NCBI GenBank assembly: GCA_964384785.1 | Contig: CAYLLH010000077.1 | Coordinates: 1-52,261 of the forward strand | Source of the DNA: an uncultured Thermoplasmatales archaeon | Lineage (GTDB): Archaea; Thermoplasmatota; E2; DHVEG-1 | Direction: 5' to 3' | DNA length: 52,261 nucleotides | Part shown: piece by piece, positions 2,210 through 38,015 of the stretch | Layout: each line of letters begins with the position of its first letter | Numbering within the stretch: position 1 is the first letter of the stretch | The notes under the pieces: model-generated | Told to the model about the DNA's origin: nothing | Database searches by the model: none | Seen by the model: the letters and a program-made list of their open reading frames with translations, nothing else | Program-made: the position numbers and the translations under genes

Positions 2210-3340
2210 ATGAAAATTGCGATGATAGGCTGGGAGTATCCGCCTTTTAAGGCAGGGGGTCTTGCGACCCATTGCTATGGGTTGACTCGTAGTCTTGCTG
2301 ATAAAAATGAAAAAGTTTATTTTTTTATGCCTAAAACTAAGCATAAAACCAGTAGTGATAAGTCTAATCTTGAAATAGTTGAAGTTGGAGAAACAGAAGT
2401 ATTTCCTTATGATCGACCTGAGGATAAGGAACTTGCTGGGAAGTTTTTTGATTCAGTTTACTATTATAATGATTTAGTTGTTGACCGGGTTAAAAAAACT
2501 GCTAAAAAAGTTGGTGGTTTTGATGTTATTCATGCTCATGATTGGCTTACTATGAAAGCAGCAGTAAAAGTTAAAGAAGAAACAGGCACTCCCTTGGTTT
2601 TAAGTATTCATTCCACTGAGTATGATCGTTCTGGTTGGATTTATCCAAATCAATGGTTTATTGACATTGAACGGGAGGGTATGCAGAAAGCTGATCATAT
2701 TATTGCGGTTAGTAATTTTACTAAAAATGTTATAGTTGAAAAATATGGAATTAATCCTGATAAAATAAGTGTGGTTCATAACGCGGTTCATCCAATCCCT
2801 GAGGATCAAAAACAAGAAATAGTGTTGTTTTTAGGCCGGTTGACTATACAGAAAGGTGCAGAGTTTTTCTTAAAGGCTGCTAGAAAAGTTTTGGATTATG
2901 AACCAGATACTCGTTTTGTGGTAGCCGGATCAGGTGATATGCTTCCTCGTTTGATACATCAATCTGTTAAAATGGATATGTCTGATAGAATGATTTTTAC
3001 AGGTCGTCTTACTGATGAAGAAGTTAAACATATTTATGGTATCAGCAGTGTCTATGTGATGCCTAGTGTTAGTGAACCATTTGGTATTACTGCTTTAGAA
3101 GCCATATCAGCAGGTACACCTACTATTGCTTCAAAAACAGCTGGTTTTTCTGAAGCCTTTAAAAACTGTCTTCGTGTTGATTTTTGGGATACTGATGAAA
3201 TGGCTAATAAAATCATTTCATTACTTCGTTATGATCCATTGCACCGGGTGATGTCTTGCGAAGGTAAAAAAGAAATAGATCTATTCACATGGGATAGAGT
3301 CGCAGATAAAACAGTTGATGTTTATAACATGGTTGGTTAG
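2210..3340 (+). CDS. Glycosyltransferase family 4 (glycogen-synthase-like)
   Basis: WEYPP..GGL N-terminus, HAHDW, HSTE, C-terminal PSVSEPFGITALEA GT-B motif; lies in an alpha-glucan cluster. Confidence 0.88.
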   Translation: MKIAMIGWEYPPFKAGGLATHCYGLTRSLADKNEKVYFFMPKTKHKTSSDKSNLEIVEVGETEVFPYDRPEDKELAGKFFDSVYYYNDLVVDRVKKTAKKVGGFDVIHAHDWLTMKAAVKVKEETGTPLVLSIHSTEYDRSGWIYPNQWFIDIEREGMQKADHIIAVSNFTKNVIVEKYGINPDKISVVHNAVHPIPEDQKQEIVLFLGRLTIQKGAEFFLKAARKVLDYEPDTRFVVAGSGDMLPRLIHQSVKMDMSDRMIFTGRLTDEEVKHIYGISSVYVMPSVSEPFGITALEAISAGTPTIASKTAGFSEAFKNCLRVDFWDTDEMANKIISLLRYDPLHRVMSCEGKKEIDLFTWDRVADKTVDVYNMVG

Positions 3341-3345
3341 AAAAA

Positions 3346-4530
3346 ATGACTTCGGTATGCATGTATTTTGAGGTTCATCAACCAGTAAGGTTGAATCGAT
3401 TTAGTGTTTTTAATATTGGAGATAAAAATAAACAAAAATATTCATATTTTGATGATAAACTAAATCATGATATTTTCAGAAAAGTAGCAAAAAAATGTTA
3501 TCTTCCTACAAATAAATTGTTACTTGATCTAATTGACCAATATGATGGAGATTTTCGCATATCTTTTAGTTTAACAGGAACTTTTGTGGAATTCTGTCAA
3601 AAGTATATGCCTGAAGTACTTGATAGCTTCAAAGAGCTTTTTAAAACTGGCTCGGTGGATATGATCGAGGAGACTTATTATCATAGTCTTTCTAGTCTTT
3701 TTGAAGATATGGATGAGTTTGAGGATCAAGTACGAATGCATAACGCTATGGTTAAAGACATTTTCAACTATAAACCACGAGTTTTCCGAAACACTGAAGC
3801 AATTTATGATAACCGTATCGCTAAAAAAGTCGCAGATATGGGTTATAAAGGAATTATGACAGAGGGTACTGAAAAAATACTACAGTGGCGTTCCCCGAAT
3901 TATGTTTACAAACCAACGAATTGTGATCTTAAAGTTTTGATGCGTAATTATAATCTTAGTGATGATGTAGGTTTTAGGTTTTCTTCACGTCTTTGGAAAG
4001 GATGGCCTCTTACTGCTGATAAATATGCTGGATGGCTTTCAAATAATCAAGGTGATTTAATTAATCTTTTCATGGATTACGAAACCTTTGGTGAACATCA
4101 ATGGACTGAGACTGGAATCTTTGATTTTTTAAAACATCTACCGGGTCATGTTTTTAATCATGATCATATGGATTTTGTAACAGTTAGCGAGGCTGTAGAA
4201 CGATATAACCCGGTTGGGGAAATTGATGTACCATGGGCAATTAGTTGGGCTGATGAAGACCGTGATGTAAGCACATGGCTTGGAAACGATATGCAGATAG
4301 CTTGTTTTAATGAAATAAAAAACATCGGTAGCCAACTTCGTGAAAAAAAAGATAAAAAATCTCTTGAAACATGGAGAAAGCTACAAACAAGTGATCATCT
4401 TTATTACTGCTGTACAAAAGGTCTAGCGGATGGTGATGTTCATGCATATTTCAGCCCATATGATGGACCATATGACGGTTTTATAAATTATATGAACATC
4501 TTACAGGATTTAAAACAAAAAGTAACATAA
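3346..4530 (+). CDS. Glycoside hydrolase family 57 (alpha-amylase type)
   Basis: GH57 conserved regions: FEVHQP, ETYYHS, FRNTE (nucleophile), MDYETFGEH (acid/base), QTSDH. Confidence 0.92.
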   Translation: MTSVCMYFEVHQPVRLNRFSVFNIGDKNKQKYSYFDDKLNHDIFRKVAKKCYLPTNKLLLDLIDQYDGDFRISFSLTGTFVEFCQKYMPEVLDSFKELFKTGSVDMIEETYYHSLSSLFEDMDEFEDQVRMHNAMVKDIFNYKPRVFRNTEAIYDNRIAKKVADMGYKGIMTEGTEKILQWRSPNYVYKPTNCDLKVLMRNYNLSDDVGFRFSSRLWKGWPLTADKYAGWLSNNQGDLINLFMDYETFGEHQWTETGIFDFLKHLPGHVFNHDHMDFVTVSEAVERYNPVGEIDVPWAISWADEDRDVSTWLGNDMQIACFNEIKNIGSQLREKKDKKSLETWRKLQTSDHLYYCCTKGLADGDVHAYFSPYDGPYDGFINYMNILQDLKQKVT

Positions 4531-4567
4531 ACTATTACTTTCATTCTCATTGGTGAGGAGAGACACT

Positions 4568-5809
4568 TTGAAAGTTACGCATTTTGTATGGGAATATCCA
4601 CCTGTAATCTATGGTGGACTAGGTACTTTTGCTGAAGAAATAACAAAAAAACAAAAATTTTTAGGGCATGATATCAATGTTTTTTCACTTAACCCTGGGA
4701 ATAAATACGATGAACTCACTGATTATGATGGAGTAAAAGTGTATCGTCCGAAAACTCTTGATTTAACAGAAACACTTCGTCTCTTTGCAGACTATGAACT
4801 AAGAGCCTGGGGTGATAATTTTAGTTTTTTTGCAGATGTAGTAGGTTACAATCTTACTTCTGCTTTTAGATTTGTAGATGAACTAACTCAAAAAAAGATA
4901 AAAAAACCAGATGTTATAGATGCTCATGACTGGCTGGGAATCCTTGCTGGTATGACAGTTAAACGCGAGATAGATAAACCACTTTTTTTCCATGTACATT
5001 CAACAGAAGTCGGTCGTTCAATCGGTCGTGGTTCTCATAACATCAAAGAAATCGAGTTTGAGGGTGGTCAAAACGCTGATTGTGTGATAACAGTTTCTTA
5101 TGCTATGAAAGATGAACTAGAAAAACTGGGTTTTCCATCACATAAAATACGTGTTTGTTGGAATGGAGTGGATCCAGATAAATATGATCCAAAAAAAATA
5201 AAACCTGAAGAAAAAAAGAATCTTCGAAAAAAATATGGAATAAATGATGATGAAAACATGCTTTTTTTTGTTGGAAGACTTGTCAATGTTAAAGGTGTGG
5301 ATTATCTAATAAAAGCTATGCCAGAAATCCTTTCTGATTTTCCAAAAACCAAGCTAGTAATACTAGGTGTTGGTGGATTAGTAAATGATCTACGAAGAAT
5401 CGCTGAAGAGACTGGTGTTTCTAATAATGTTATTTTCCGTGATGAGTTTGTTAGTGAACATGAAAGGATAATTCATTATGCAGCATCTGACTGCGTGGTG
5501 CTTCCATCTGTTTATGAACCATTTGGAATCGTTTGTACTGAAGCTATGAGTATGGCTAAACCAACTGTTGTTGGAGCACGTGGAACCAATGGTTTCCGTG
5601 AACAAATAATACCAGAGGGTGATGAAATGTCAGGTGTACATGTAGATGGAGGTAACTCTGGGGATATATCCTGGGGTGTAAAAAAATTACTTGGAATGAC
5701 TGACAAAGGAAAACATGTTGGAATAAATGCTAGAAAGAGAGTTCTTGAAAAATTTACATGGAAACATGTGGCTGAAAGAACAATAAACATTTATAAAGAA
5801 TTTAGTTAA
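4568..5809 (+). CDS. Glycosyltransferase family 4 (second glycogen-synthase-like paralogue)
   Basis: WEYPP..GGLG, DAHDW, HSTE, PSVYEPFGIVCTEA. Start moved from 4550 to TTG 4568, downstream of the GGTGAGG RBS-like motif. Confidence 0.88.
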   Translation: MKVTHFVWEYPPVIYGGLGTFAEEITKKQKFLGHDINVFSLNPGNKYDELTDYDGVKVYRPKTLDLTETLRLFADYELRAWGDNFSFFADVVGYNLTSAFRFVDELTQKKIKKPDVIDAHDWLGILAGMTVKREIDKPLFFHVHSTEVGRSIGRGSHNIKEIEFEGGQNADCVITVSYAMKDELEKLGFPSHKIRVCWNGVDPDKYDPKKIKPEEKKNLRKKYGINDDENMLFFVGRLVNVKGVDYLIKAMPEILSDFPKTKLVILGVGGLVNDLRRIAEETGVSNNVIFRDEFVSEHERIIHYAASDCVVLPSVYEPFGIVCTEAMSMAKPTVVGARGTNGFREQIIPEGDEMSGVHVDGGNSGDISWGVKKLLGMTDKGKHVGINARKRVLEKFTWKHVAERTINIYKEFS

Positions 5810-5841
5810 ATAAATTTGTTTGAGGGGATGAAAACAAAGTT

Positions 5842-7704
5842 ATGAAAGAATGGATTGTGACCAATGGTCTTGGGGGTTATGCTTCTCTTACTTTTCAAAG
5901 TACAAATACCCGGAAATTCCATGGACTATTAGTTTCTAGTCTTAACCCACCGACAGAGCGTTGGTGTTTTATCTCAAATGTTTTTGACAAGGTAAAACTA
6001 AATGGACATAGTTTTGATTTAAGAGTTTTCAAACCAGTTTACAGTTTTGATTATTTTCCCTGTTTTATTTATAATTTTGAAAATGTTCAAATCAAAAAAA
6101 CAGTTTTTATGCAACATGAAAAAAACACAACGATTATTAAATATGATATTAAAACCAAAAAACCAATAACTTTATTTCATAAACCAGTGGTTAATTCTAG
6201 GCATTTTTATGATCTTAATACTAGACGTGATTTGTTTTTTGAACAAAAACCTGTTAAAAATGGTGTGAATGTTAAAGTTGAAAACATTGACCGTGAGATC
6301 AAGTTTTTTTTAGAAGGTTCAAGTTATAGTTCTGATTTTGTCTGGGAGGAGTTTTATTATAAAAAGGATCATGAACGCGGGGATTCATGGATTGATAACA
6401 ATGCTGTTCTTGGTGATATTACAAAAAAAATTGATGGGAATTGTGTGTATTATCTTGTTTTAACTACTGAAAAAAATATTCCAAAGAATCCGGATAAGAT
6501 TTTTTCTAAAGAAATTGATAGAAGGAAAAAGATTTTTGAAGATTCTAAACTCCCTGAGAAGTTTGAAAAACTGGTTCTTTCAACTGATAATTTCATAGTA
6601 AATAAACAGGATAGTAAATCTGTTATCGCAGGTTATCATTGGTTTGGAGATTGGGGTCGGGATACCTTGATTTCTCTACCGGGTTTAGCACTGGTGACTC
6701 GTCGTTTTGATGATGCAGAAAAAATTCTTCAAAATTTTGCAAATTTTAGCAGAAATGGTTTGATTCCAAATGCTTTTATGGAACGTGATTCACAGCCTGT
6801 TTATAACACGGTTGATGCATCACTTTGGTATATAGATCGTGTTTTTCAATATTTGAAATATACAAACAATATTGGTTTTGTTGAAAAAAACTGGGATGTG
6901 CTAAACTCTATTATTGATGGTTACAAAAATGGTACAGAGCATGGTATTTTCATGGATGAGGATTTTTTGATTTCTCATGATTCCGGTCTTACATGGATGG
7001 ATGTTAAACTTGGTGATTATTATCCTACTCCTCGTGCTCGAAAAGCAGTGGAAATACAAGCTCTTTGGTATAACGCGTTAAAAATAATGAGTACTTTATC
7101 TGAAATTATTGGCAAAGACGATACTTATAGTTCTTTAACTGAAAAAGTTAAGGATAGTTTTGGATCAAAATATGATGATTTTTATGATGTGATAGATGCT
7201 CGTGATACTTCTTTTAGACCTAATCAAATCTTTCTTGTATCACTTGATTTCAACATGATTAATAGTAAGCTTCAGAAAAAAATTGTTGAAAATGTTGAAG
7301 ATAAACTTGTGACTGTTTTTGGACTTAAAACTCTTTCATCTGACCACTCAGAATACAAAGGAAAATATCTAGGGGATTACAACAAAGACTTAGCGTATCA
7401 TAATGGTACTGTTTGGCCATGGCTTCTTGGGCCGTTTATAACAGCTTATGTTAAAACACATGATACTACTTCTAAAACTCGAAAAAAAGCCTATAAAAAC
7501 TTTCTGCAGCCGATGCTTCAAATTTTTGGTGAAGAATGGGATGGCAGCATTAATGAGATTTTTGATGGAAACCCGCCTCATAATAAACGTGGTTGTATAA
7601 CTCAGGCTTGGAGCGTAGCTGAAATACTAAGATGCTGGGTTGAAAACATTGAAAATATTAAACCCGAGTTTGATGAGCATTTTTTACATAAAATACGCGT
7701 TTAA
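5842..7704 (+). CDS. Glycogen debranching enzyme (amylo-alpha-1,6-glucosidase)
   Basis: EWIVTNGLGGYAS N-terminal domain, AGYHWFGDWGRDT, TWMD, YHNGTVWPW, QAWSVAE. Confidence 0.92.
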   Translation: MKEWIVTNGLGGYASLTFQSTNTRKFHGLLVSSLNPPTERWCFISNVFDKVKLNGHSFDLRVFKPVYSFDYFPCFIYNFENVQIKKTVFMQHEKNTTIIKYDIKTKKPITLFHKPVVNSRHFYDLNTRRDLFFEQKPVKNGVNVKVENIDREIKFFLEGSSYSSDFVWEEFYYKKDHERGDSWIDNNAVLGDITKKIDGNCVYYLVLTTEKNIPKNPDKIFSKEIDRRKKIFEDSKLPEKFEKLVLSTDNFIVNKQDSKSVIAGYHWFGDWGRDTLISLPGLALVTRRFDDAEKILQNFANFSRNGLIPNAFMERDSQPVYNTVDASLWYIDRVFQYLKYTNNIGFVEKNWDVLNSIIDGYKNGTEHGIFMDEDFLISHDSGLTWMDVKLGDYYPTPRARKAVEIQALWYNALKIMSTLSEIIGKDDTYSSLTEKVKDSFGSKYDDFYDVIDARDTSFRPNQIFLVSLDFNMINSKLQKKIVENVEDKLVTVFGLKTLSSDHSEYKGKYLGDYNKDLAYHNGTVWPWLLGPFITAYVKTHDTTSKTRKKAYKNFLQPMLQIFGEEWDGSINEIFDGNPPHNKRGCITQAWSVAEILRCWVENIENIKPEFDEHFLHKIRV

Positions 7705-9393
7705 AACATACTGTTGAATCATACGGTTTGTGTTAAAAAACGAAGCATTAATAGCAATACAACTACGCATAGTACGAATCCAGTTATCACGGTCATCTTT
7801 GAATTTTGGTATAACCCAGTTTTCAAGTTTGTCATATAAATCGTTTTTATCGGTTTCATCATCTGATTGTTGATCATGTGTTTTTTCAGGGCCTATAGAC
7901 CAACCAGTTATGTTTTCTATACAACCCTCTAGCCACCATCCATCTAGTGTTCCAAACTGTGGAACTCCATTATGAGCAGCTTTCATACCACTAGTACCCG
8001 ATGCTTCTTTAGGCCGTCTTGGTGTATTCAGCCAGACATCTACACCTGATATCATTCTTTTAGCTATAGCCATATCATAGTTTTGGATAAACGTGATTTT
8101 CACACGGTCATCAATACTTTTTTTTACATCAAAAATTTTTCTGATTGCTTGTTTACCTGCTTCGTCTTTAGGATGTGCTTTACCAGCATAAATGATCTGA
8201 ATGGAACCATATTTATCAGTAATCTGAAGTAATCTATCCGGATCTGAAATTAACATATCTGGTCTCTTGTAAGGTGTTTGACGACGTGCAAAACCTATAG
8301 TGAAATCCTCATAATTCATACCAGCGTTATAATGCTTATTTACATAGTTGATAAGAGTCTGTTTAGCCGCCATATGTGCATCCCATATTTCTTGTTTATC
8401 AATACTAAACGCTGAACGAAGGGAGTATGCATCAGAACGCCAACCAGGTATATGTTTATCAAATAATCTTTGAAATGGTTCAGAAACCCATGTTGTACTA
8501 TGCACACCGTTAGTTATCGAGTCAATACTGTATCCTGGAAACATCGTACGTGAAACCTCGCCATGTTTTTTAGCTACACCGTTAACATAATGGCTGAAAA
8601 ATAAGGCAAGACGGGTCATATTAAGACGATTTTCAAAAGTAACATCATCAAGAATGAAATCAGGTAGGAGATTACCAATCATATTTTTTGCAAGCTGCAA
8701 ATCAAATTGATCATGACCTGCTGCAACAGGTGTATGGGTGGTAAAAACACATTGTTTACGTACTTTTTCTACATCATTAAAACGATCATACAATTCAAGA
8801 GTACCAAAAGCTGCATGACCTTCATTCATATGATGTCGGTCAATAGTTTTATAACCCAGTTCATGAAGCATACGAACACCGCCGATACCAAGAACTATTT
8901 CTTGAGCTAGGCGATATTTATTGTCCCCGCCATACAAATATTTTGTAAGCTCTCGATCCCAGTCATTGTTTCCTTCAACATTAGTATCCAGGAAAAAAAT
9001 CGGGACAATAAAACCACTAACACCCTTCACTGCGTAATACCAACAACGAATTTTTACTTCCCTACCTTCTATATTAACAGTTGTAGTGGTTGGAAGTTGT
9101 TCAAGAAAATTATCAACCGCAAACTCCATTGGTCGTTCACTTTGGTTACCATCTTCATCAATTTTTTGATAAAAATAACCTTTTTCAGAAAGAAGAGTAA
9201 CACCAACCAATGGTACATTAAGATCTGCACAAGATTTAATAGTGTCTCCAGCTAAAACTCCAAGACCACCACTATACGTGGGAATATTATCATCAATTCC
9301 TATTTCCATAGAAAAATAAGCAATTTTTGGTTTCCCACCGAGTTTAGCTTTCCCGCCACTGATGTTCTTTGAATTATCCTTCGTCTCCTGCAT
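7684..9393 (-). CDS. glgP: Alpha-glucan (glycogen/maltodextrin) phosphorylase, GT35
   Basis: AYFSMEIG, YSGGLGVLAGD, HMNEGH, FTTHTP, PLP-lysine motif EASGTSGMKAAHNG. Start likely ATG 9393 (ORF track gives 9426). Confidence 0.93.
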   Translation of the reverse strand: MQETKDNSKNISGGKAKLGGKPKIAYFSMEIGIDDNIPTYSGGLGVLAGDTIKSCADLNVPLVGVTLLSEKGYFYQKIDEDGNQSERPMEFAVDNFLEQLPTTTTVNIEGREVKIRCWYYAVKGVSGFIVPIFFLDTNVEGNNDWDRELTKYLYGGDNKYRLAQEIVLGIGGVRMLHELGYKTIDRHHMNEGHAAFGTLELYDRFNDVEKVRKQCVFTTHTPVAAGHDQFDLQLAKNMIGNLLPDFILDDVTFENRLNMTRLALFFSHYVNGVAKKHGEVSRTMFPGYSIDSITNGVHSTTWVSEPFQRLFDKHIPGWRSDAYSLRSAFSIDKQEIWDAHMAAKQTLINYVNKHYNAGMNYEDFTIGFARRQTPYKRPDMLISDPDRLLQITDKYGSIQIIYAGKAHPKDEAGKQAIRKIFDVKKSIDDRVKITFIQNYDMAIAKRMISGVDVWLNTPRRPKEASGTSGMKAAHNGVPQFGTLDGWWLEGCIENITGWSIGPEKTHDQQSDDETDKNDLYDKLENWVIPKFKDDRDNWIRTMRSCIAINASFFNTNRMIQQYVLNAYFM

Positions 9394-9543
9394 AACGACT
9401 TCTTCTCCATCCACCATGAAAACCAATAAACAAATATTGTTTTATAAAATGTTTTATTTTATAATTTAGTTACGTAGTTATACAATACATTTATTAATGT
9501 GTTCTGTTGTATTATAATAAAAAATTAGGATATTTGGTGGTGG

Positions 9544-28697: not shown

Positions 28698-29486
28698 TTA
28701 TATCCATTCCATTAGTTGTTCTGCGTCATTGAAAAGTTTTGATCTTACAAGTATTGTAACTGTGAGTGCTGTAATTATTCCACCGCCAACAATCATTAAG
28801 TAAACTATTATTTGGTATTCTGCTGCAAGTATGGGGTCAGTTCCAGCTATCAACAGTCCAGCCATAGCTCCAGGGATAAAAATTACTCCTAGTGTTTTCA
28901 ATCGATCAATAGTTGGTATCAAACTTGCTCGTACACTTAGTCTTCCGTATTCTTCCAATGCTTCTTTTGAATTTGCTCCAAGAGATAGTTTGGTTTCTAT
29001 AGCAGTTCGATTTAGTTTTACTTCTCTTAGGAGTCTTTCCATTGATATTGAACATATTGCCATGCTGTTTCCAAATGCCATACCTGCTAATGGTATAATG
29101 AATTGTGGTTTTAGGGGCATAGCTTGTGAGGCTGCTAGAACTATTAATGCTAATGTTGCTCCTGCAAGGATTGCTGGTGTTGTAACTTCATAAGCATGTG
29201 GTACACCTGTTGCTCTTTTTGCAGATGTATAACCGCTTACTAAAACCATGGTTCCTATTAAAATCCATATTAGAAAATACCAGTATTCAAAATCAAATAA
29301 AAATGTTAAAAACAGAGCAATCAATGCAAGTTGTCCTCCACCTTTCCCAATAGCTACTGTAAATTCTTTTCCGATATCAAGTTTTTTTATGATAGATATA
29401 ATAATTACTATAACTAAAAGTATCATCACCATTCCAAGTATAACAAGACCCTGCTCCCAAGAATAGGGTATGCCTACTTCAGTCAA
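28698..29486 (-). CDS. ABC permease, FetB/UPF0014 family
   Basis: IIPLAGMAFGNSM, LGA, LIPTID..KTLG...IPGAM.G.L.AG.DP..AAEYQ. TTG 29486 overlaps the upstream stop codon (TTGA). Confidence 0.85.
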   Translation of the reverse strand: MTEVGIPYSWEQGLVILGMVMILLVIVIIISIIKKLDIGKEFTVAIGKGGGQLALIALFLTFLFDFEYWYFLIWILIGTMVLVSGYTSAKRATGVPHAYEVTTPAILAGATLALIVLAASQAMPLKPQFIIPLAGMAFGNSMAICSISMERLLREVKLNRTAIETKLSLGANSKEALEEYGRLSVRASLIPTIDRLKTLGVIFIPGAMAGLLIAGTDPILAAEYQIIVYLMIVGGGIITALTVTILVRSKLFNDAEQLMEWI

Positions 29487-30163
29487 TATGCTCCTCTCCA
29501 TTTGAAATCAGAAGTTTTGTCTATACTTTTTACAACACCTTCTTTTATGTTAGCAATCCTGTTGCATACTCTCATGGCTTGTTCTACATAGTGAGTAACC
29601 CAGATAACAGTTAAATCAAGGTCTTTTGAGGACCCAACAATATTTTTTTCTACTTTTTCAACATTTTTAGGATCCACTCCGCTTGTTGGTTCATCTAAAA
29701 GTAGAATATTAGGGTTTAATGCTAAAGCCCTAGCAAGCCCCACTCGTTTTTTTTCTCCACCTGATAGTTTTTCCGCCTTTTTTTGTAAAAAATTTTTTGG
29801 AAGACCCGAATGTTCGATACATTGGTAGATATAATCTTTATCGATTTCTCCGATAAGTTTTGGTCCATATGATACGTTTTCGTAGACTGTTCCAGGTAAC
29901 ATTACGCTTTCTTGATGTACCATTACAATTTTTCTTCTTAGATTCACTGGTTTAATTTTTTTTATGTTTTCATTTTGAAAAAATATTTCTCCTTCATCTA
30001 TTTCTATAAGACGGTTTATACATCTAAGAAGGGTTGATTTTCCACTGCCGCTGGGTCCAACAAGTCCAAGTATTTCACCTTTTTTGATATTAAGATTTAT
30101 TCCTTTTAGTATTGGTTTGTTTTGTAGATTTTTTTTAATGTTGTCGATTCTTAGAATTGTCAT
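29483..30163 (-). CDS. ABC ATP-binding protein, FetA-like
   Basis: GPSGSGKST, LSGGE, LLLDEPT, VTH; translationally coupled to the FetB-like permease. Confidence 0.9.
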   Translation of the reverse strand: MTILRIDNIKKNLQNKPILKGINLNIKKGEILGLVGPSGSGKSTLLRCINRLIEIDEGEIFFQNENIKKIKPVNLRRKIVMVHQESVMLPGTVYENVSYGPKLIGEIDKDYIYQCIEHSGLPKNFLQKKAEKLSGGEKKRVGLARALALNPNILLLDEPTSGVDPKNVEKVEKNIVGSSKDLDLTVIWVTHYVEQAMRVCNRIANIKEGVVKSIDKTSDFKWRGAY

Positions 30164-30169
30164 TGTTTT

Positions 30170-30466
30170 TTAGATCACCTCGGATTCAAGTTCTTTTATG
30201 AATTTTTTTAGTTCTTCTAGTGTTTTGTTTCCTTTTTTTGTGGTATGATATATTTTTCTTATTTTTCCTTGAACATTTTTCTTTTTGATTTTTAGTAGTT
30301 TTTTGTTGTTCATTTCATGTAGAATTGGATATAGTGTACCTGGGCTGATTTTATAACCGTGTTTTTTTAGTTCTTCTATCATCCATGCTCCATAGATTCC
30401 TTCTTTTTTTGCATGATGCAATATATGGATTCTTATGAATCCTAGGAGTATTTTTCTTTCATACAT
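30170..30466 (-). CDS. PadR-family transcriptional regulator
   Basis: HILHHA...IYG..M.EEL..HGY.ISPGTLYP.LH..RK.Y..T.KG. Confidence 0.9.
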   Translation of the reverse strand: MYERKILLGFIRIHILHHAKKEGIYGAWMIEELKKHGYKISPGTLYPILHEMNNKKLLKIKKKNVQGKIRKIYHTTKKGNKTLEELKKFIKELESEVI

Positions 30467-30470
30467 TTAT

Positions 30471-30504
30471 TATCGAAAAACGATATCGGTATTCGATATA
30501 TAAA
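30471..30504 (-). promoter_or_regulatory. Tandem operator TATCG-N5-CGATA x2 plus TATA box of the padR-fetAB operon
   Basis: TATCGaaaaaCGATA (30471-30485) and TATCGgtattCGATA (30484-30498), abutting TTTATATA on the - strand (30497-30504) and lying just upstream of the padR ATG. Confidence 0.75.
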
Positions 30505-30563
30505 TTTTATTAAAGTAACAAAAAATGATAAAATTAAAAAATTAAAGAAACTAAGATACTTTT

Positions 30564-30701
30564 TTATGCCGAGGTAGTTATTATTGGGCTTTTTTTGTAT
30601 ATGTGATCCAGTTTTAACTTTAGATTTCCCCCGCATAACGGACAAGACCTTAATCTTCTTGTGAAACGTGCATGGCATTTTTCGCATTTCATATCAATCA
30701 T
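30564..30701 (-). CDS. Small zinc-ribbon protein, not in the ORF track
   Basis: Hand-translated 45 aa MIDMKCEKCHARFTRRLRSCPLCGGNLKLKLDHIYKKSPIITTSA; CxxC..CPxCGG; GAGGG upstream. Confidence 0.6.
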   Translation of the reverse strand: MIDMKCEKCHARFTRRLRSCPLCGGNLKLKLDHIYKKSPIITTSA

Positions 30702-30876
30702 ATTTTTCCCTCAGAACTAAAAAGTTAATTTCACAGTATAAAAAATTGACGTTTTAATAATCGACTTATGACGAAAAAAATTAAATATATAAAATTAATT
30801 TAACTAATCTAACAGAAACACTAACATTCTTGCTAAATCATAAAAATATGTTAAAAAAATACAATTTTTAATAATT

Positions 30877-32679
30877 CTATTTTTTATTTAATAATCCACC
30901 ATGTTTATATATCTCAATTTGTGATTTTGAAAAAGGTTTAGCATGATAAGTTTCATTTTTTGTTTTATTTTTTATCAAACCTGTTTCAAAATCAACCTCA
31001 AGGATATCTTTATCATCAATTTTTTTTGTTATACCCTCGACTATCATTATCGGCATAGCATTATTGATCGCGTTTCTTTCATAGATTGATCCAAATGATT
31101 CAGCTATAATCACACTTACACCAAGACTTTTGAAACAATCAACAGCTTGCTGACGGCTGCTTCCACATCCAAAGTTTTTACCAGCAACTACTATATCACC
31201 CGGTTCTACTTTTTTTGCAAAATCTTCATAACCTTTTAGATTATCAAAAGTATATTGACCCATTTCTTCAATATCTGTGATACTAAGATATCGGTTATGA
31301 TATATCATATCTGTATCAATGTTATCCTTCTGAATCAACCATGCTCGTCCTTCAACTTCCATCGGTGAATCATATTTTTTTGTTTTTTGTTTTGATTCAA
31401 AAATTTTTTCAGAGGATATTTTTGCTTTTTCAGCATTACTAGGGATTCTATCCTCAGTATTTATGTACCCTGAAACAAGGGATGCTGCAACTGTCGCTGG
31501 AGATGCAAGATATACATCTCCTTTTCCTTGTTTACCTGTATAATTACGGTTTCCAGTTGAAACTTCTACTTCGAATTCACCTGTTTGACCAATTTGACCT
31601 GCAGCACAACCTGCGCATCCTGCACTTCCAATAAGCGCTCCTGCATCTTTGAATATTTTAATAAGTCCTTCATCAAGACATTGTTTCCAAAGTTTATCAG
31701 TACTTGGAACTATTTTTAAAACACGATCTGGTGAAATTTTTTTGTTTTTCAAAACTTCTGCAGCAGAACGCATATCAGAAATACGGCCATTGGTACAACT
31801 ACCTATGAAACCAGAGTCTACTTTTACATTTTTTAATTGATTCACTTTTACTACATCTTCAGGATGACCTGGTCTAGATATCATTGGTTTGATGTCATCA
31901 ATATCGATTTCTATTGTTTTTTCATAATCTGCATCATCATCTGCATATACAGGTTCAACTGAGACATTCATTTTTTTGTAAAAATCTAAAACATATTTGT
32001 TTGGTGGGAAAAAAATTATTAACCCTCCCATCTCAGTTGCCATAGAAGCAATAGTGATTCGCCCATCTAAAGATAATTCATCAATATATTCTCCATATAT
32101 TTCACAAGCATAACCAAGAAGTCCATTTGCTCCAATTTTTTCAAGCATCTTAAGAACAACATCTTTAGCAGAAGTTTTTTTGTCAGGTTTACCTTTTAAA
32201 ACAATTTTAAGAGTAGGCGGGACCTTGAACCAGATTTTTCCATGAGCCCAAGCATGAGCAATATCTTTATCGCCCATTCCCTGTCCAAAAGCACCAATAG
32301 CACCCAAAATATTTGCATGAGAATCAGTACTTATTATTGTGCCACCAGGTTTTGCGATACCTTCATCAATTACAATATGTGTTCCTATTCCCTGGTTTAT
32401 ATCATAAACTTTGATGTTGTTTTTTCTAGCGAAACGACGACATATATGCTGATTTGCGGCATATTTTTGATCACAACCACCAGGGTTACAGTCAAAAGTA
32501 AAAAATGTTTTTTCAGGATCATCAACAGAAAGATTATTTTCTTCAAGATTTTTAACTACATTTGCTCCACCGAAATCACGAGCTGCTCGTACATCAATAG
32601 TTATATCTATTATATCTCCAATTTTTGCTTCCTGAATGGAATGTTTTTCAAAAATTTTTTGAATTATAGTCTTACCCAT
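30877..32679 (-). CDS. Aconitase-family hydratase, fused large (LeuC/HacA-like) and small (LeuD/HacB-like) subunits
   Basis: TDSH, GSCTNGR, GCAGC (Fe-S ligands), STGNRNY.G.QG, LASP; C-terminal swivel domain NIDTD..Y, GKNFGCGSSR, ERNAIN. Confidence 0.88.
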   Translation of the reverse strand: MGKTIIQKIFEKHSIQEAKIGDIIDITIDVRAARDFGGANVVKNLEENNLSVDDPEKTFFTFDCNPGGCDQKYAANQHICRRFARKNNIKVYDINQGIGTHIVIDEGIAKPGGTIISTDSHANILGAIGAFGQGMGDKDIAHAWAHGKIWFKVPPTLKIVLKGKPDKKTSAKDVVLKMLEKIGANGLLGYACEIYGEYIDELSLDGRITIASMATEMGGLIIFFPPNKYVLDFYKKMNVSVEPVYADDDADYEKTIEIDIDDIKPMISRPGHPEDVVKVNQLKNVKVDSGFIGSCTNGRISDMRSAAEVLKNKKISPDRVLKIVPSTDKLWKQCLDEGLIKIFKDAGALIGSAGCAGCAAGQIGQTGEFEVEVSTGNRNYTGKQGKGDVYLASPATVAASLVSGYINTEDRIPSNAEKAKISSEKIFESKQKTKKYDSPMEVEGRAWLIQKDNIDTDMIYHNRYLSITDIEEMGQYTFDNLKGYEDFAKKVEPGDIVVAGKNFGCGSSRQQAVDCFKSLGVSVIIAESFGSIYERNAINNAMPIMIVEGITKKIDDKDILEVDFETGLIKNKTKNETYHAKPFSKSQIEIYKHGGLLNKK

Positions 32680-32698
32680 CTAAAATTCACCAAAACCT

Positions 32699-33481
32699 TT
32701 ATTTTTTTTCTTTAGGAATATCTTGTTCCTTAGGGCCATCATACCCCGCCTCAACTTTAAACATTTTTCTCATAGGTTTAAAATCAGTTTGCTCTTCATA
32801 TACTTGAGCAGTAAGACCAGCTACACGCCCCAGTAAGAAAAAACCTTTGCCAAGACGCCAGTCAAAACCCATATCACTACTAATAGCAGCAATAGCTCCA
32901 TCAACATTTATAGGAAGTTTACGACCCAGTTTTTTTTCTAGTTCTTTTTCAATAGATTTTGCAAGAGCTATATGATCACCATTTATACCAAGTTCTTCTG
33001 ATAATTCAAATAAACGTTTAGTCCTCGGGTCTTCGGTATGTACTCGATGCCCAAAACCAAGAATCCGTTCATGTTTTTCACGAGATTCCTTTACTAAAAT
33101 CTCAGCGGTTTCTTCAATGGAGAGTTTTTCTTTTTCCATACGTTTTATTCCATGTTGAAAAAACTTTGCCCCTTTCTCAATTGCTCCTCCATGAGCATCA
33201 CCGATACTTAAAACCCCTGCTGCAACAGCTGTAGGTAAAGGAACACCGCCACTAGCAACCACACGAGATGCCATAGCACTAGGTGGTGTCACTCCATGAT
33301 CAATACAAGCCGTAAGAATGGCATCCATCATTTTACCATGTTCTTTAGATGGCAGCTCGCCTTTTAAAAGTAAATAGACAACATGAGCGAAAGGAATATT
33401 TCCAATCAAATCTTCCTGACGATAACCTCGAGTTACAAGATGATTAGGTTCAACTTTTGTTATTTTACTATCCCATTCCAT
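32699..33481 (-). CDS. Citryl-CoA lyase (short citrate-synthase-fold protein)
   Basis: 260 aa; DHGVTPPS, HGGA, GFGHRVH..DPR, NVDG, GR..GL. The length fits the stand-alone citryl-CoA lyase class rather than a full citrate synthase. Confidence 0.82.
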   Translation of the reverse strand: MEWDSKITKVEPNHLVTRGYRQEDLIGNIPFAHVVYLLLKGELPSKEHGKMMDAILTACIDHGVTPPSAMASRVVASGGVPLPTAVAAGVLSIGDAHGGAIEKGAKFFQHGIKRMEKEKLSIEETAEILVKESREKHERILGFGHRVHTEDPRTKRLFELSEELGINGDHIALAKSIEKELEKKLGRKLPINVDGAIAAISSDMGFDWRLGKGFFLLGRVAGLTAQVYEEQTDFKPMRKMFKVEAGYDGPKEQDIPKEKK

Positions 33482-33488
33482 ATTTTTT

Positions 33489-34979
33489 TCACTCCTTAAC
33501 TCTATAAATCACATCTAAAAGCGTTCCATCACGCCATTTAGTAACACCAATTATTTCATCACCAAGATCAAGCTTTGGTGGTCCTCCTGTTTCATCATAA
33601 GCCATATCACGTAAATCCTCAATTTTTACAAGATTAACTTTGTCTTTTACTTTTTTAATTAAATCTTTCCTACGAGGATTAATAGCTATTCCTTCATTTG
33701 TAACAATTGCATCTACTACATCACCAGGTGTTGTAAGGGTAGTTACACTATCTCTAATCACAGGTATTTTTTTTCTAAAAACAGGAACCGTGGCTATTGT
33801 TAATCCTGCTGCTGAGCAGGTGTCTTGATGACCTCCTATTCCATGTAACAACCGTCCATCACTATGTGTGTTAACATTGATATTGAAATCTACATCTACT
33901 TCTGTAGCTCCAACAATGGTTGTATCTAAACCATCTAAAAAACGACCTTTATTTGATGGGTCAGCATAATGCCCAATATCGGTTATGAGTTTACGGTTTT
34001 CAGCTAAAAATCTTATTGATTCCACATCAAAACATTGCAAGCCGTATACATTTTTAACAAGCCCTTTTTTGTACATGTTTACAATATGCTCTGTAACTCC
34101 ACCTGTTTCACAAGATGCAAAAACATTTTTTTCTTCTAGTTTTTCTTCAAGATATTTTAATGCAGCTAGAGATATACCACCAGCTCCTGCTTGAAAAATC
34201 ATACCGTTTTTGATAAGACCTGCTGCATCCATCAAATTAATGCATTCCTTACCTATCCCTAGTTTCATTGGATCAGTTGTTAGTTTTAAAGAGCCACTAA
34301 CAATATTATCGGGATCACCAATGCAGTCAACTTCTACTACATAATCAACATTTTTTTCTGATATTTCTTGAAGTGGACAAGGTCTTTCCACAAGATTATC
34401 TGTTACTACTATTACTTTGTCAGCTTTTTCTACATCTGCCTGGGAATAACAAATTGGTCCAAAAGCACTTTTTCCAATAAGTCCTGTACAGTTACCCCGG
34501 TTATCAGCTGTTGATGCTGCAACAACTGCGATATCAATTTTTAGTTCACCGTTTCTAACAGCCGCCCATCGCCCTCCATGTGAACGTAAAATTACTGGAT
34601 GAGGTAAAGGATTTTTTGAAACATAATCTCCAACTGTTCCATTTATACTTCCTTCAATACGGGTTACTGTTCCTTCTTCAATATGTTCGATAACTGGCTT
34701 ATGTACAGGGAATAAAGCGGTTTGAGCAAGCCGTAGGTTTTTAGCTCCAAGCTCACGAATAGTTTCAAGTGTAAGATTTACTACATAGTCTCCATTCCTT
34801 AGTTGATGATGAAAACTTATTGTCATTCCATCTTTAAGACCACTTTTTTTCAAAGCATCCTTTAAAGTTACTATTTTAGAATCACAACGATTTTTACTAG
34901 CACCAGAAAACGGTTTTATTTTTTCACCATTAAGATCAGTGGGAACATCACGGTCTGCAGCATTTTTCACAAAACCCAT
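33489..34979 (-). CDS. citF: Citrate lyase alpha subunit-like CoA/ACP transferase
   Basis: GLKDGMTISFHH.LRNGD, RSHGGR, GN..G..G, FQAGAGG, LD....GATEVD.DFN.NV, GGHQD, TTPG..VD..VT..GIA.NP, RDG...D. Confidence 0.88.
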   Translation of the reverse strand: MGFVKNAADRDVPTDLNGEKIKPFSGASKNRCDSKIVTLKDALKKSGLKDGMTISFHHQLRNGDYVVNLTLETIRELGAKNLRLAQTALFPVHKPVIEHIEEGTVTRIEGSINGTVGDYVSKNPLPHPVILRSHGGRWAAVRNGELKIDIAVVAASTADNRGNCTGLIGKSAFGPICYSQADVEKADKVIVVTDNLVERPCPLQEISEKNVDYVVEVDCIGDPDNIVSGSLKLTTDPMKLGIGKECINLMDAAGLIKNGMIFQAGAGGISLAALKYLEEKLEEKNVFASCETGGVTEHIVNMYKKGLVKNVYGLQCFDVESIRFLAENRKLITDIGHYADPSNKGRFLDGLDTTIVGATEVDVDFNINVNTHSDGRLLHGIGGHQDTCSAAGLTIATVPVFRKKIPVIRDSVTTLTTPGDVVDAIVTNEGIAINPRRKDLIKKVKDKVNLVKIEDLRDMAYDETGGPPKLDLGDEIIGVTKWRDGTLLDVIYRVKE

Positions 34980-34987
34980 TTTTTTTG

Positions 34988-35509
34988 TTACACCATCCCT
35001 TTTTTGATGTGAAAATCTATAAAATCACAATGATGAACGATTACACTTTCAGCTGAACGTTCACATTTATCTCCTTCATGGCTATGAGCATAAATGATCA
35101 GTACAACTTCGTCAGGAAGACCAAGTTCCCTAGCAAGCAATGCGCCTGATACAGGATGGCGGAATTTTTTACCATACTCTCCTTTCACAACTTTTCCATC
35201 CACAACATCATACTCTAGAAGTTTTCCAACATCATGAAGCAATGCGCCTGCTATCAAAAAATCAAGATTAATATCTTCATCGCGTTCATCAAAAACTGCT
35301 TTAGCAAGATGAGTTATCCTTTTTGTATGATCAGTAAGTTTCCCTGAGTTTTCAAAAAGCAAAGTAAAAGGAACATCCTCAAGTGTTTTCCAACCACGAA
35401 TATCTGATGCTTTTTTCCAAACCTGAACTACTTTATCTTTTAGTTCATCATCCTTAATCCAACTTAATTCTTCAGCAAAAACAGATTCAATCTTTTTTAT
35501 ATCTACCAA
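34988..35509 (-). CDS. HD-domain protein (metal-dependent phosphohydrolase fold)
   Basis: PFTLL, H, GALLHDVGKLLEY, RHP.SG, HSHEG, HHCDF. Start likely TTG 35509 (ORF track gives 35533). Confidence 0.85.
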   Translation of the reverse strand: MVDIKKIESVFAEELSWIKDDELKDKVVQVWKKASDIRGWKTLEDVPFTLLFENSGKLTDHTKRITHLAKAVFDERDEDINLDFLIAGALLHDVGKLLEYDVVDGKVVKGEYGKKFRHPVSGALLARELGLPDEVVLIIYAHSHEGDKCERSAESVIVHHCDFIDFHIKKGMV

Positions 35510-35634
35510 CGAAATACCCCCAGATTGTTTCAATGTAATCCAAAAACTATGATATTAACGTTCTGACTGTTAAATAAAAAAAATTTAAATCAATGAATGA
35601 TTTAATCTTTGGATTTTGAGGAGAATAACATTTC

Positions 35635-35916: not shown

Positions 35917-36153
35917 TCATTCGAAATCTGATCCTAGGTAATAACCACAATAGGAGCATTCATTACCGTCGATAGGTTGATTGCAGTTTGGGCATACTCC
36001 TGAGGTATCAAAATTTTGGATTTCATCCTCTTCTATTGTAGAGCCGCAATCCGGGCAAACATAGGTATTTTCCTCGCCATTGGGGGAAGGCTTCATTGAT
36101 GCACCGCAATTTGGACATACAATTTTTTTTTCCATATCCATCACATATTCCAT
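35917..36153 (-). CDS. Double zinc-ribbon protein
   Basis: CPNCG, CPDCG, CPNC, CSYCG; GGAG upstream. Confidence 0.75.
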   Translation of the reverse strand: MEYVMDMEKKIVCPNCGASMKPSPNGEENTYVCPDCGSTIEEDEIQNFDTSGVCPNCNQPIDGNECSYCGYYLGSDFE

Positions 36154-36572: not shown

Positions 36573-38015
36573 ATGAACTTTAACTCTAGGAGAATTAGGA
36601 AAATAGATGCAATAATAGTAGTAGCACTGATAATTATATCAGCTGTAATACTTTTTGAAGCAGGATATTTTCCAGAAGAAACTGAAAAAGAAACACCAGA
36701 AATGCGTTTTATAAAAGATAATGAAAAGAACACACTCATCTTAGTTTTCATCTCAGGTGAAGATTATAACTGGAATGAATTCGAAATACAAGGGAATTGT
36801 GATACTTCAGATTTGTCAGGTAGTGTTGATCCAAATGATATGATTAAAAATTGTTTCGGGAAAATTGTTATAATATATAAACCCACAGAAGAAATTATTG
36901 GTAGTTGGGTTTTTGAGGAAGAAAAACCTCCAGGCTCAATATTTCTACCAAATAAACAAGTAGTATCTCCAGAGGATGAGGGATCTCATTATAACAAGCT
37001 CTTGGTGAATCGTGAATGGTGGACATGGACAAGTGTTTTTGATAAAGATAGTGATTTAGCTGGTTGGACTATAACTATTAGTTTCATGCATCTAGCAAGA
37101 GGTGATCTTATGGCTACATTGAAACCTGATGCAATGGTTTTAACACTTCATAGCCCTGATGGAGAAGAATACGGTGGTATCATAAATAAGGAACGCGGTC
37201 TTGGTCTTTTAAATAAACCAACATTACAGGCAGGTTCACCTGGTGTAGATATTAAATTTGAAAAATCATGGGTTGAAGGAACTGCATCTGAAGATTGGAA
37301 GATATATGCAGTAGATAACGACATAGATGCAAATCATGACATAATTGTAGATGTAAATTGTCATGTTGAATCAGATCCTATCTGGACGAGTAAAGGACTT
37401 TTTGATAAAGGAGATAACAGCATAGCAAGCTATATTTTTACAGGAGTTGAGATGACTGGAATCATTAAAATTGATGGAAAAGAACACAATGTTAAAGGTA
37501 TCGGTCATCACCATCATACCTGGTCAAATGGTTTGTTAAAATCATTTATTAAAGGCTGGGATTTCTGCCATATGAAACTTGACAATGGATGGAATATATA
37601 CTACAGTAAATATCATTTGATAACATCCGAAAGAAGTCTATCTGATACTTCAAAAATAAACCCATATACTAACGTTATTGTAACAGCAGATAACGGTCAT
37701 ACTATAACTGAACTTAAAAACATACAGATTCAAACAGATTCAAAAACAATTTTTGGAAATGTTAAAATACCTACAAATATAAACATTCAAGCAGAACCAG
37801 ATATAACTCAGACTTTGTTGAAAACCTATGGAATAAAACTTAATATTGATGTTGAAACAGATAATATTTATGAAAAAGTTTTCAATAGTGTTCCAAAAGT
37901 AGGAGTTAATATTGGACGATCAAATATAGATGGCAATCTAGTTTGGACTGAAGATAACAAAAATTATGATGTAGATCTAAAAGGAACAGGTTCTCTTTGG
38001 ACTATGAGACATTAA
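36573..38015 (+). CDS. Membrane-anchored extracellular protein with an AttH/CrtC-like (lipocalin-like beta-barrel) domain
   Basis: N-terminal TM; H...EWW.W motif, G.I.IDG....V.G.G..H.W, GWDF..M.LDNG. Confidence 0.6.
   Translation: MNFNSRRIRKIDAIIVVALIIISAVILFEAGYFPEETEKETPEMRFIKDNEKNTLILVFISGEDYNWNEFEIQGNCDTSDLSGSVDPNDMIKNCFGKIVIIYKPTEEIIGSWVFEEEKPPGSIFLPNKQVVSPEDEGSHYNKLLVNREWWTWTSVFDKDSDLAGWTITISFMHLARGDLMATLKPDAMVLTLHSPDGEEYGGIINKERGLGLLNKPTLQAGSPGVDIKFEKSWVEGTASEDWKIYAVDNDIDANHDIIVDVNCHVESDPIWTSKGLFDKGDNSIASYIFTGVEMTGIIKIDGKEHNVKGIGHHHHTWSNGLLKSFIKGWDFCHMKLDNGWNIYYSKYHLITSERSLSDTSKINPYTNVIVTADNGHTITELKNIQIQTDSKTIFGNVKIPTNINIQAEPDITQTLLKTYGIKLNIDVETDNIYEKVFNSVPKVGVNIGRSNIDGNLVWTEDNKNYDVDLKGTGSLWTMRH

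Follow-up and report, generated by a model that had tools for sequence, protein, structure and literature searches.

An HD-CitF-citryl-CoA lyase operon in Thermoplasmatales archaea as a candidate carrier-protein-free and ATP-free route of citrate cleavage

Three ways of cleaving citrate are known, namely the carrier-dependent citrate lyase, the ATP-dependent systems represented by ATP-citrate lyase (ACL) or by citryl-CoA synthetase acting with citryl-CoA lyase (CCS/CCL), and the reversal of citrate synthase. The bacterial citrate lyase (CitDEF, EC 4.1.3.6) combines the alpha subunit CitF with the lyase subunit CitE and the carrier CitD, which bears the citryl thioester, and spends no ATP per turnover. 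In the CCS/CCL system of Hydrogenobacter thermophilus (structures 6HXP and 6HXQ) free citryl-CoA is formed by an ATP-dependent ligase and then cleaved by CCL, and the two-subunit ACL exemplified by Methanosaeta concilii (ACLY-A/B, 6HXI/6ZNW) contains a CCL-type module that cleaves citryl-CoA. The subject of this report is an operon that places CitF beside CCL in an uncultured Thermoplasmatales archaeon. It lies at positions 30877-35509 on the minus strand of contig CAYLLH010000077.1 (assembly GCA_964384785.1), which was analysed over its whole 52,261 nucleotides (the window), and it encodes an HD-domain protein, CitF, CCL and a fused hydro-lyase of the aconitase superfamily.

The operon consists of four adjacent minus-strand open reading frames (ORFs) at 34988-35533 (HD), 33489-34979 (CitF), 32699-33481 (CCL) and 30877-32679 (fused aconitase), separated in that order by 8, 7 and 19 nt. 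An initial annotation, made from the sequence alone, had described four close-packed minus-strand genes here, and the reading frames, the gaps and the profile scores bear this out. CitF (496 aa) is a class II CoA-transferase that scores 511.5 bits against TIGR01584 (cut-off 501.45) and 1.1e-137 against PF04223, and that matches the Salmonella CitF structure 1XR4 at 5.2e-112; it thus qualifies as a citrate lyase alpha subunit. CCL (260 aa) has the citrate-synthase fold, scores 303.3 bits against NF004866 (cut-off 245), and aligns over its full length (residues 3-259) with the H. thermophilus CCL structure 6HXP at 3.2e-72. It carries the motifs IDHG (60), GFGHRVH (142), DPR (151), NVDG (192) and LGRVAG (217), within which all 31 of the orthologues aligned keep H62, H145, R153, D194 and R219; in fold and key residues it is thus a CCL of the CCS/CCL type. 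By the precedent of citrate synthase, we take the His/His/Asp set of the H62/H145/D194 type to be catalytic and the arginines of the DPR and GR motifs to bind oxaloacetate.

The best reading of this real and strongly conserved operon, to which we assign a probability of about 0.65, is that it encodes a new variant of citrate cleavage that would need neither a carrier protein nor ATP. CitF would transfer the CoA of acetyl-CoA onto citrate, so that acetate would be released and free (3S)-citryl-CoA formed (EC 2.8.3.10), and CCL would split the citryl-CoA into oxaloacetate and acetyl-CoA (EC 4.1.3.34), regenerating the primer, so that the net reaction would convert citrate into acetate plus oxaloacetate. 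CCL would have displaced both the carrier CitD and the lyase CitE of the classical enzyme. The hydro-lyase, where present, would probably link citrate with cis-aconitate or isocitrate, and the HD protein would be a conserved accessory. From sequence and gene context we infer what the enzymes catalyse, that free CoA esters are used, in which direction the reactions run and what roles the aconitase and HD proteins play. An acyl-carrier-protein-free and ATP-free cycle of CitF and CCL was already put forward in the initial annotation, and it gains support from searches in which no citCDEFXG or CCS genes were found, from the conservation of the cluster and from the swapping of modules within one chromosomal slot. 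The stereochemistry fits, as both partial reactions are defined on (3S)-citryl-CoA in the EC definitions. CitF is proposed as a candidate acetyl-CoA:citrate CoA-transferase on free CoA esters. EC 2.8.3.10 is listed with both free acetyl-CoA and acetyl-dephospho-CoA as donors (PMC8085960), and class II transferases are described as working through a ternary complex with no covalent enzyme intermediate (PMC9196870). A predicted complex of CitF and CCL, computed from alignments of 31 sequences each and without controls, scored 0.00 and counts neither for nor against their association.

Compared with CitDEF, the window system has a CitF of the same family, and it would share the succession of acyl exchange and citryl thioester cleavage, the net reaction and the absence of ATP expenditure per turnover. 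Unlike CitDEF, it has no CitD, CitE, CitC, CitG or CitX and its lyase has an unrelated, citrate-synthase fold, so that three of the four defining features of CitDEF are lacking; its intermediate would be free citryl-CoA, whereas that of CitDEF is a carrier-bound thioester. With the H. thermophilus system it shares a CCL that is homologous over the full length and, as proposed, free citryl-CoA as intermediate, and clusters related to CCS/CCL share with it the HD gene and a LeuCD-type enzyme with a RYLSIT loop. It differs from CCS/CCL in that citryl-CoA would be formed by CoA transfer and not by an ATP-dependent ligase, that the product would be acetate and not net acetyl-CoA, and that no CcsA or CcsB was found. 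The CCL-type module that cleaves citryl-CoA is also a point of likeness with two-subunit ACL, but a domain scan detected no ATP-grasp or CoA-ligase domain in the window cluster, and the kinship of its CCL with the ACL module is remote (2.5e-19 against 6QCL, an alpha-subunit chain of ACL, and 2.5e-07 against the alpha chain of 6HXI). Reversed citrate synthase needs free CoA and a single enzyme and yields acetyl-CoA; with CitF and CCL, a CoA-transferase would instead supply the thioester and acetate would be released. The reversed oxidative tricarboxylic acid (TCA) cycle, named in PMC13147460, is similar in that citrate is cleaved without ATP by an enzyme of the citrate-synthase fold. The citramalate lyase found in Clostridium tetanomorphum, whose alpha subunit is EC 2.8.3.11, likewise joins a class II CoA-transferase to a lyase near an Fe-S hydro-lyase step in a fermentation (PMC8085960), but it depends on a carrier protein, has a CitE-type lyase and acts on citramalate, differences that are drawn from its description rather than from its sequence. 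No paper pairing CitF with CCL was found in the literature searched (supplements aside), and where the available portions of work on these archaea treat markers of the reverse Krebs cycle, these are of the ACL or CCS type alone (PMC9802188, PMC11287216).

With regard to the classical partners, neither CitD (PF06857) nor CitE (PF03328) gave a match in the source assembly (1.62 Mb in 112 contigs, 87.69% complete and 0.01% contaminated; the window is its contig C77), and tblastn queries with CitD::CitE fusion proteins from archaeal and bacterial relatives returned nothing at E<=0.01. The possibility that CitD was merely missed through incomplete assembly was rejected, as CitD occurs in 0 of the 107 genomes of the family. 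The activation genes CitG, CitX and CitC (PF01874, PF03802 and PF08218) were each found in none of five genomes, these being the source, a 95%-complete congener and three CitDE-type relatives. CitE-like proteins of the family comprise stand-alone HpcH-type aldolases in 8 genomes, never adjoining CitF, and some weak matches. Where citryl-CoA synthetase is concerned, PF00549 matched only the ACL alpha subunit in the source genome, tblastn with CcsA gave no match, and tblastn with CcsB gave only pieces of ACL and one 644-aa ORF on contig C48. None of the mapped loci holds a conserved small ORF inside the operon that might serve as a carrier. The initial annotation had noted that these partners are missing from the window, and profile searches and tblastn extend their absence to the assembled genome for citD, citE, citC, citG, citX and citryl-CoA synthetase alike; as no such partner was found, neither a carrier system nor a citryl-CoA synthetase appears to be available to CitF and CCL within the assembled 88%.

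The gene order HD-CitF-CCL-aconitase is no chance arrangement, because the same order recurs in dozens of genomes. A survey of 118 genomes of the order detected CitF in 88 (36 of the 43 high-quality ones) and CCL above its cut-off in 74. In all but one of these 74 genomes, that is in 73, CCL is the next gene downstream of CitF and shares its strand, the lone exception being situated at a contig start, so that the synteny of a cluster which the initial annotation had seen in a single genome proved to be strongly conserved. When the window proteins were mapped onto 73 loci from other genomes, the HD gene stood upstream of CitF in all 61 evaluable loci (12 further loci are truncated by contig ends), and the gene behind CCL was the fused aconitase in 46, a conserved 439-aa protein without a Pfam match in 21 and something else in 4, with 2 loci cut. 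From these neighbour counts the conserved core of the operon is HD-CitF-CCL, with the aconitase as a common fourth gene that can be dispensed with. The pairing also extends to metagenomes, where CitF stands upstream in 46 of the closest 80 CCL loci and CCS is present in 18. Two further metagenomic loci have variant layouts, one (L194, GC 0.59) with the order CCL-HD-CitF and a CitF of 45% identity, the other (L177, GC 0.50) with CitF-CCL but no HD gene, CitF being 52% and CCL 64% identical.

The strongest argument that CitF and CCL form a working citrate-cleavage unit comes from what replaces them. In 17 genomes of the family that lack CitF, a CCL-domain match of about 1e-55 was found, mostly in frames of about 715 aa. 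In the three of these genomes that were fetched, an ATP-dependent module, HD-CcsA-CcsB::CCL, occupies the same chromosomal slot, with CcsA being a CcsA-like ATP-grasp protein and CcsB::CCL a fusion of CoA-binding, CoA-ligase and citrate-synthase domains. No genome carries both the CcsA-CcsB::CCL type of module and CitF-CCL. In two sister families, CitD is present in 5 of 8 genomes of the one and 1 of 2 of the other, fused to CitE and directly upstream of CitF, and the resulting HD-CitD::CitE-CitF arrangement (4 loci) again stands behind the HD gene, opposite the same divergent gene for a putative membrane protein. One slot thus holds three non-equivalent ways of making and cleaving a citryl thioester, and because the three modules share this slot behind the HD gene, CitF and CCL can be argued to do the same job as the other two.

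Several loci outside the family show further variants of these modules. The four sister-family loci with HD-CitD::CitE-CitF (L119-L122, in genomes G002-G004 and G009) were found without CitG, CitX or CitC in 3 of 3 genomes tested, and their CitD-like domain has Glu at the position that in most aligned bacterial CitDs is the Ser of an ES(G/S)D motif. Since some CitDs of Veillonellales lack that Ser as well, the Glu is no more than a hint that loading of the archaeal carrier domain may be unusual. At another sister-family locus (L040, in G006), HD and CitF are followed by a full-length 360-aa protein of the citrate-synthase fold that is 68% identical to the CCL part of CcsB::CCL, an arrangement that, judged by its sequence, looks like an intermediate between module types. 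Three loci from bacterial metagenome-assembled genomes (MAGs), one of the FCB group (L018, L022 and L036), have a CitD::CitE fusion followed by CitF and HD, the His of the HD pair being Ile. A 132-aa protein without a Pfam match stands between CitF and HD in L022 and L036 only, and a fused 'homoaconitase' lies behind HD in L018 and L036 but not in L022. In L036 it scores 855 bits against TIGR00139, and that locus has an Iso_dh gene and a PrpD-family gene as well.

CitF homologues at 57-93% identity occur in MAG loci labelled Thermoplasmatota, Thermoplasmata and Thermoplasmatales archaeon. In a tree of 43 CitF sequences (quick IQ-TREE run, SH-aLRT support), the CCL-linked CitFs, including that of the window, form one clade with a support of 99. 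Its sister consists of the CitFs of two Thermoplasmata CitF-HD loci, and the next branch (86) holds the CitFs of the three bacterial MAG loci, which come from CitD::CitE-CitF-HD-aconitase clusters. The CitFs of archaeal CitDE-type loci group with canonical bacterial CitFs in the other half of the tree. As the CCL-linked CitFs form a single clade beside HD-linked CitFs, the pairing with CCL had a single origin, within a line of CitFs to which the HD gene was linked beforehand. The source genome has a second, orphan CitF on another contig (C25:4830-6383, L006; TIGR01584 538.7 bits) with no lyase, carrier or HD gene adjoining it, and this protein sits on a long branch. Other Thermoplasmatota MAGs have orphan CitFs of a similar kind (L019-L021).

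These data also bear on the view that the genes are neighbours with no common pathway, or that CitF needs an unrecognised carrier while CCL serves ACL or some other system. The assembly is 87.69% complete, which leaves room for such a carrier, and a CitF can occur without a lyase beside it, as the orphan on C25 and the two Thermoplasmata loci with CitF-HD and no lyase alongside (L017 and L034) demonstrate. However, CitF and CCL are neighbours a few bases apart in 73 of 74 genomes, CitD is found in none of 107 genomes, no conserved small ORF lies in the operon, and ACL has a CCL domain of its own. We regard either of these alternatives as highly improbable.

The direction of the reaction is a separate matter. 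The equilibrium between citrate and acetate plus oxaloacetate lies near unity under standard conditions, and physiological oxaloacetate strongly favours cleavage, for which reason the system is read as a lyase. In the opposite direction, CCL would condense acetyl-CoA with oxaloacetate and CitF would pass the CoA to acetate, giving an energy-conserving citrate synthase from which the aconitase would lead onward to isocitrate and 2-oxoglutarate. In principle either reaction can run both ways, a search of the source genome for a canonical citrate synthase found none (PF00285 matches CCL and the alpha subunit of ACL and nothing else), 46 of 71 loci have an aconitase-type gene behind CCL, and the genome has isocitrate dehydrogenase genes. 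With a standard free energy near zero, however, micromolar oxaloacetate would keep citrate at sub-micromolar levels; moreover, the modules that replace CitF-CCL at the locus, CCS::CCL and CitDE-CitF, are known as cleavage systems, and the ACL of the genome could already run in reverse. Synthesis of citrate by this pair is on balance unlikely.

That ACL is encoded by a true and complete ATP-citrate lyase operon elsewhere in the source genome (C68:96-4116 and C81:1-4865, L210 and L211, on contigs that overlap at a contig break). Its subunits match M. concilii ACLY-A and ACLY-B at 2.5e-153 and 2.4e-162, and the operon also contains a PRK07229 aconitase (966 bits), a monomeric NADP-isocitrate dehydrogenase (TIGR00178, 1253 bits) and an Iso_dh-family gene. 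Two putative systems for cleaving citrate are thus encoded in the genome, in which no canonical citrate synthase was detected. Because CitF-CCL would yield acetate rather than acetyl-CoA and would spend no ATP, unlike ACL, a catabolic role suggests itself: speculatively, CitF-CCL would suit the breakdown of citrate, or of glutamate by reductive carboxylation of 2-oxoglutarate, and ACL would serve the supply of acetyl-CoA.

The fourth gene encodes a 600-aa fusion of LeuC- and LeuD-type domains (30877-32679, minus strand; PF00330 and PF00694) that scores 403.4 bits against NF001614 (cut-off 385). It does not reach the equivalogs for aconitase (PRK07229, 318.9 bits against 612; TIGR01342, 249 against 719) or for LeuC and LeuD (TIGR02083, 328 against 610; TIGR02084, 140 against 246). 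Its nearest structures are Methanocaldococcus jannaschii LeuCD (4NQY and 3VBA, an isopropylmalate/citramalate isomerase) and HacAB (4KP2 and 2PKP, a homoaconitase). The fold is that of the aconitase superfamily, and Cys295, Cys355 and Cys358, presumably the ligands of a 4Fe-4S cluster as in the family at large, are invariant in 44 of 44 orthologues and common to the PRK07229 aconitase of the same genome. The recognition loop of the small domain reads RYL[S/H/A/T][I/V]T among orthologues and RYLSIT in the window protein; it is uncharged, resembles that of isopropylmalate isomerase (IPMI; RYLVYT in the M. jannaschii chain), and lacks the carboxylate-binding Arg of the M. jannaschii homoaconitase chain (PYLRTT). 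Substrate recognition depends on this region of the small domain (PMC7308503, citing Jeyakanthan 2010). An ordinary LeuCD of the leucine pathway was rejected, because no HMGL-like synthase of the LeuA/CimA type scored above its cut-off in the source genome or in 37 of the 46 genomes that carry the aconitase cassette.

A RYLSIT or KYLSIT loop also occurs in more remote metagenomic clusters, there in split LeuC-LeuD pairs right behind CCL. Since the RYLSIT class recurs beside CCL irrespective of which enzyme does the activating, action on citrate or cis-aconitate is favoured for it, as far as loop sequence and gene context can tell. Four metagenome contigs (L182, L189, L193 and L197) have the order Iso_dh - LeuC - LeuD(KYLPLT) - HD - CcsA - CcsB - CCL - LeuC - LeuD(RYLSIT), with two distinct LeuCD-type pairs flanking one CCS/CCL module and its HD gene. 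The suggestion in the initial annotation that the cycle is fed by the aconitase stands insofar as the gene is present in 46 of 71 evaluable loci; its absence from the other 25 and the IPMI-like loop speak against it, and it is the weakest part of that proposal.

The same enzyme opens the question of whether the true substrate is an analogue of citrate, such as 2-methylcitrate or a citramalate- or homocitrate-type acid. In that case CitF would make the CoA ester of the acid for CCL to cleave, and isomerisation of the acid would fall to the LeuCD-type enzyme. Its closeness to the M. jannaschii isopropylmalate/citramalate isomerase and homoaconitase, its uncharged loop, and the lack of a LeuA/CimA-type synthase, which removes ordinary leucine synthesis as its task, all agree with such a substrate, as do the TIGR00139 'homoaconitase', Iso_dh and PrpD genes of the related bacterial clusters. 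The 3.2e-72 full-length match of CCL to a citryl-CoA enzyme and its retention of the DPR and GR arginine motifs, which bind oxaloacetate in the citrate-synthase fold, argue for citrate instead, and we know of no enzyme of the citrate-synthase fold that uses pyruvate or 2-oxoglutarate. Furthermore, the aconitase is dispensable in 25 of 71 loci, and the modules swapped in at the slot are of the citrate type (a TIGR01588-like CitE, or CCS-like). Class II transferases do include a citramalate CoA-transferase (PMC8085960), but taken together these points make an analogue substrate quite unlikely, and cleavage of citrate itself is the preferred reading.

The first gene of the operon encodes a 173-aa metal-dependent hydrolase of the HD/HDIG type (34988-35509, minus strand; PF01966 7.7e-11 and TIGR00277). 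Its TTG start codon at 35509 is preceded by GGGGG and aligns with the N-termini of orthologues, confirming the end coordinate first given for the gene; the longer ORF from the TTG at 35533 is probably not the one used. In an alignment of 40 HD sequences, H61, D93, K96, H118, H142, H160 and D162 are invariant, and these include the usual metal ligands of the HD superfamily (H61, D93, H118, H142 and D162, 40 of 40). H92, the His of the 'HD' pair, is present in archaeal copies and is I or L in 4 homologues, three of them bacterial and one from the Thermoplasmata MAG locus L017. An AlphaFold2 (AF2) model with a mean confidence (pLDDT) of 96.9 confirms the HD fold at the level of prediction, and Foldseek searches with it found generic HD folds only, the best being the HD domain of YhaM (TMq 0.70), followed by HDDC2-type nucleotidases. 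By sequence the protein had no match in the PDB, and in the ESM Atlas it matched only clusters labelled 'HD domain-containing protein'. The HD gene is the constant partner of all three types of citrate-cleavage module.

Several findings weigh against carrier-free, ATP-free citrate cleavage by this operon. The HD protein is its best-conserved partner and yet has no place in the proposed chemistry. The hydro-lyase is LeuCD-like, falls under the aconitase equivalog cut-off and has a loop without Arg, so that citrate is not assured as its substrate, and the gene is missing from 25 of 71 evaluable loci. The source genome is just 87.69% complete, and its ACL operon comes with its own aconitase and isocitrate dehydrogenase, so that a second citrate-cleaving system needs a physiological reason. 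Finally, and with little weight because just 8000 candidates were scored, no CitF::CCL fusion was found among the 120 listed longer CCL homologues (of 765 at E<=1e-30), all 120 of which join the citrate-synthase domain to CoA-binding and/or CoA-ligase domains and none of which contains PF04223. Against the background of these points, a carrier-protein-free and ATP-free operon of the form HD-CitF-CCL(-aconitase) is still, at roughly two chances in three, the reading that we prefer.

The sequence around the operon was read by eye. The upstream non-coding region at 35510-35634 (minus strand) is a likely promoter and leader, with a TATA-like A/T-rich element, TTTTTATTTA, near 35571-35580 and the GGGGG ribosome-binding site, and a T-rich tract at 30830-30876 (minus strand), past the stop codon of the aconitase gene, likely marks the end of the operon. 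Two small Cys-rich, zinc-ribbon-like ORFs flank the operon (30442-30687 and about 35917-36152, both minus strand). The former overlaps the start of a gene for a PadR-family regulator (30170-30466), behind which lie FetA/FetB-like ABC transporter genes (28698-30163). Divergent to the HD gene is a 480-aa ORF without a Pfam match (36573-38015, plus strand), whose position is kept in most related loci at 35-50% identity, whatever citrate module is present; the hydrophobic N-terminal stretches in the translations of its homologues suggest a putative membrane protein. The other neighbours are housekeeping genes, namely those for glycogen metabolism, the archaeal mevalonate pathway (including AcnX, a UbiD-like protein and a GHMP kinase), tRNA synthetases and a clostripain-like peptidase. 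The glycogen cluster (window 2210-9426) comprises two GT4 glycogen-synthase-like genes, a GH57 gene, a debranching enzyme and a phosphorylase.

If the proposal is true, CitF and CCL would constitute a further route of citrate cleavage, a simple two-enzyme system that recombines parts of two systems normally held separate. This would bear on the modularity of ACL, CCL and citrate synthase during evolution, and it directs attention to a conserved HD protein and to a class of LeuCD-type enzymes with the RYLSIT loop. Widespread sediment archaea may be misjudged wherever CCL is counted as a marker of the reverse Krebs cycle, or CitF without CitD and CitE is flagged as incomplete. A broader and rather doubtful extension sees CitF-CCL as a third, energy-neutral citrate lyase in an HD-headed slot for three interchangeable chemistries, with the HD protein as an obligatory helper of citryl-thioester chemistry. 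Glutamate might then be fermented in a redox-neutral manner, without B12, to acetate and pyruvate, on a route that would lead from 2-oxoglutarate through isocitrate and citrate to acetate and oxaloacetate by means of isocitrate dehydrogenase and an aconitase-type enzyme. Were this so, such a glutamate route would serve abundant protein-degrading archaea of sediments.

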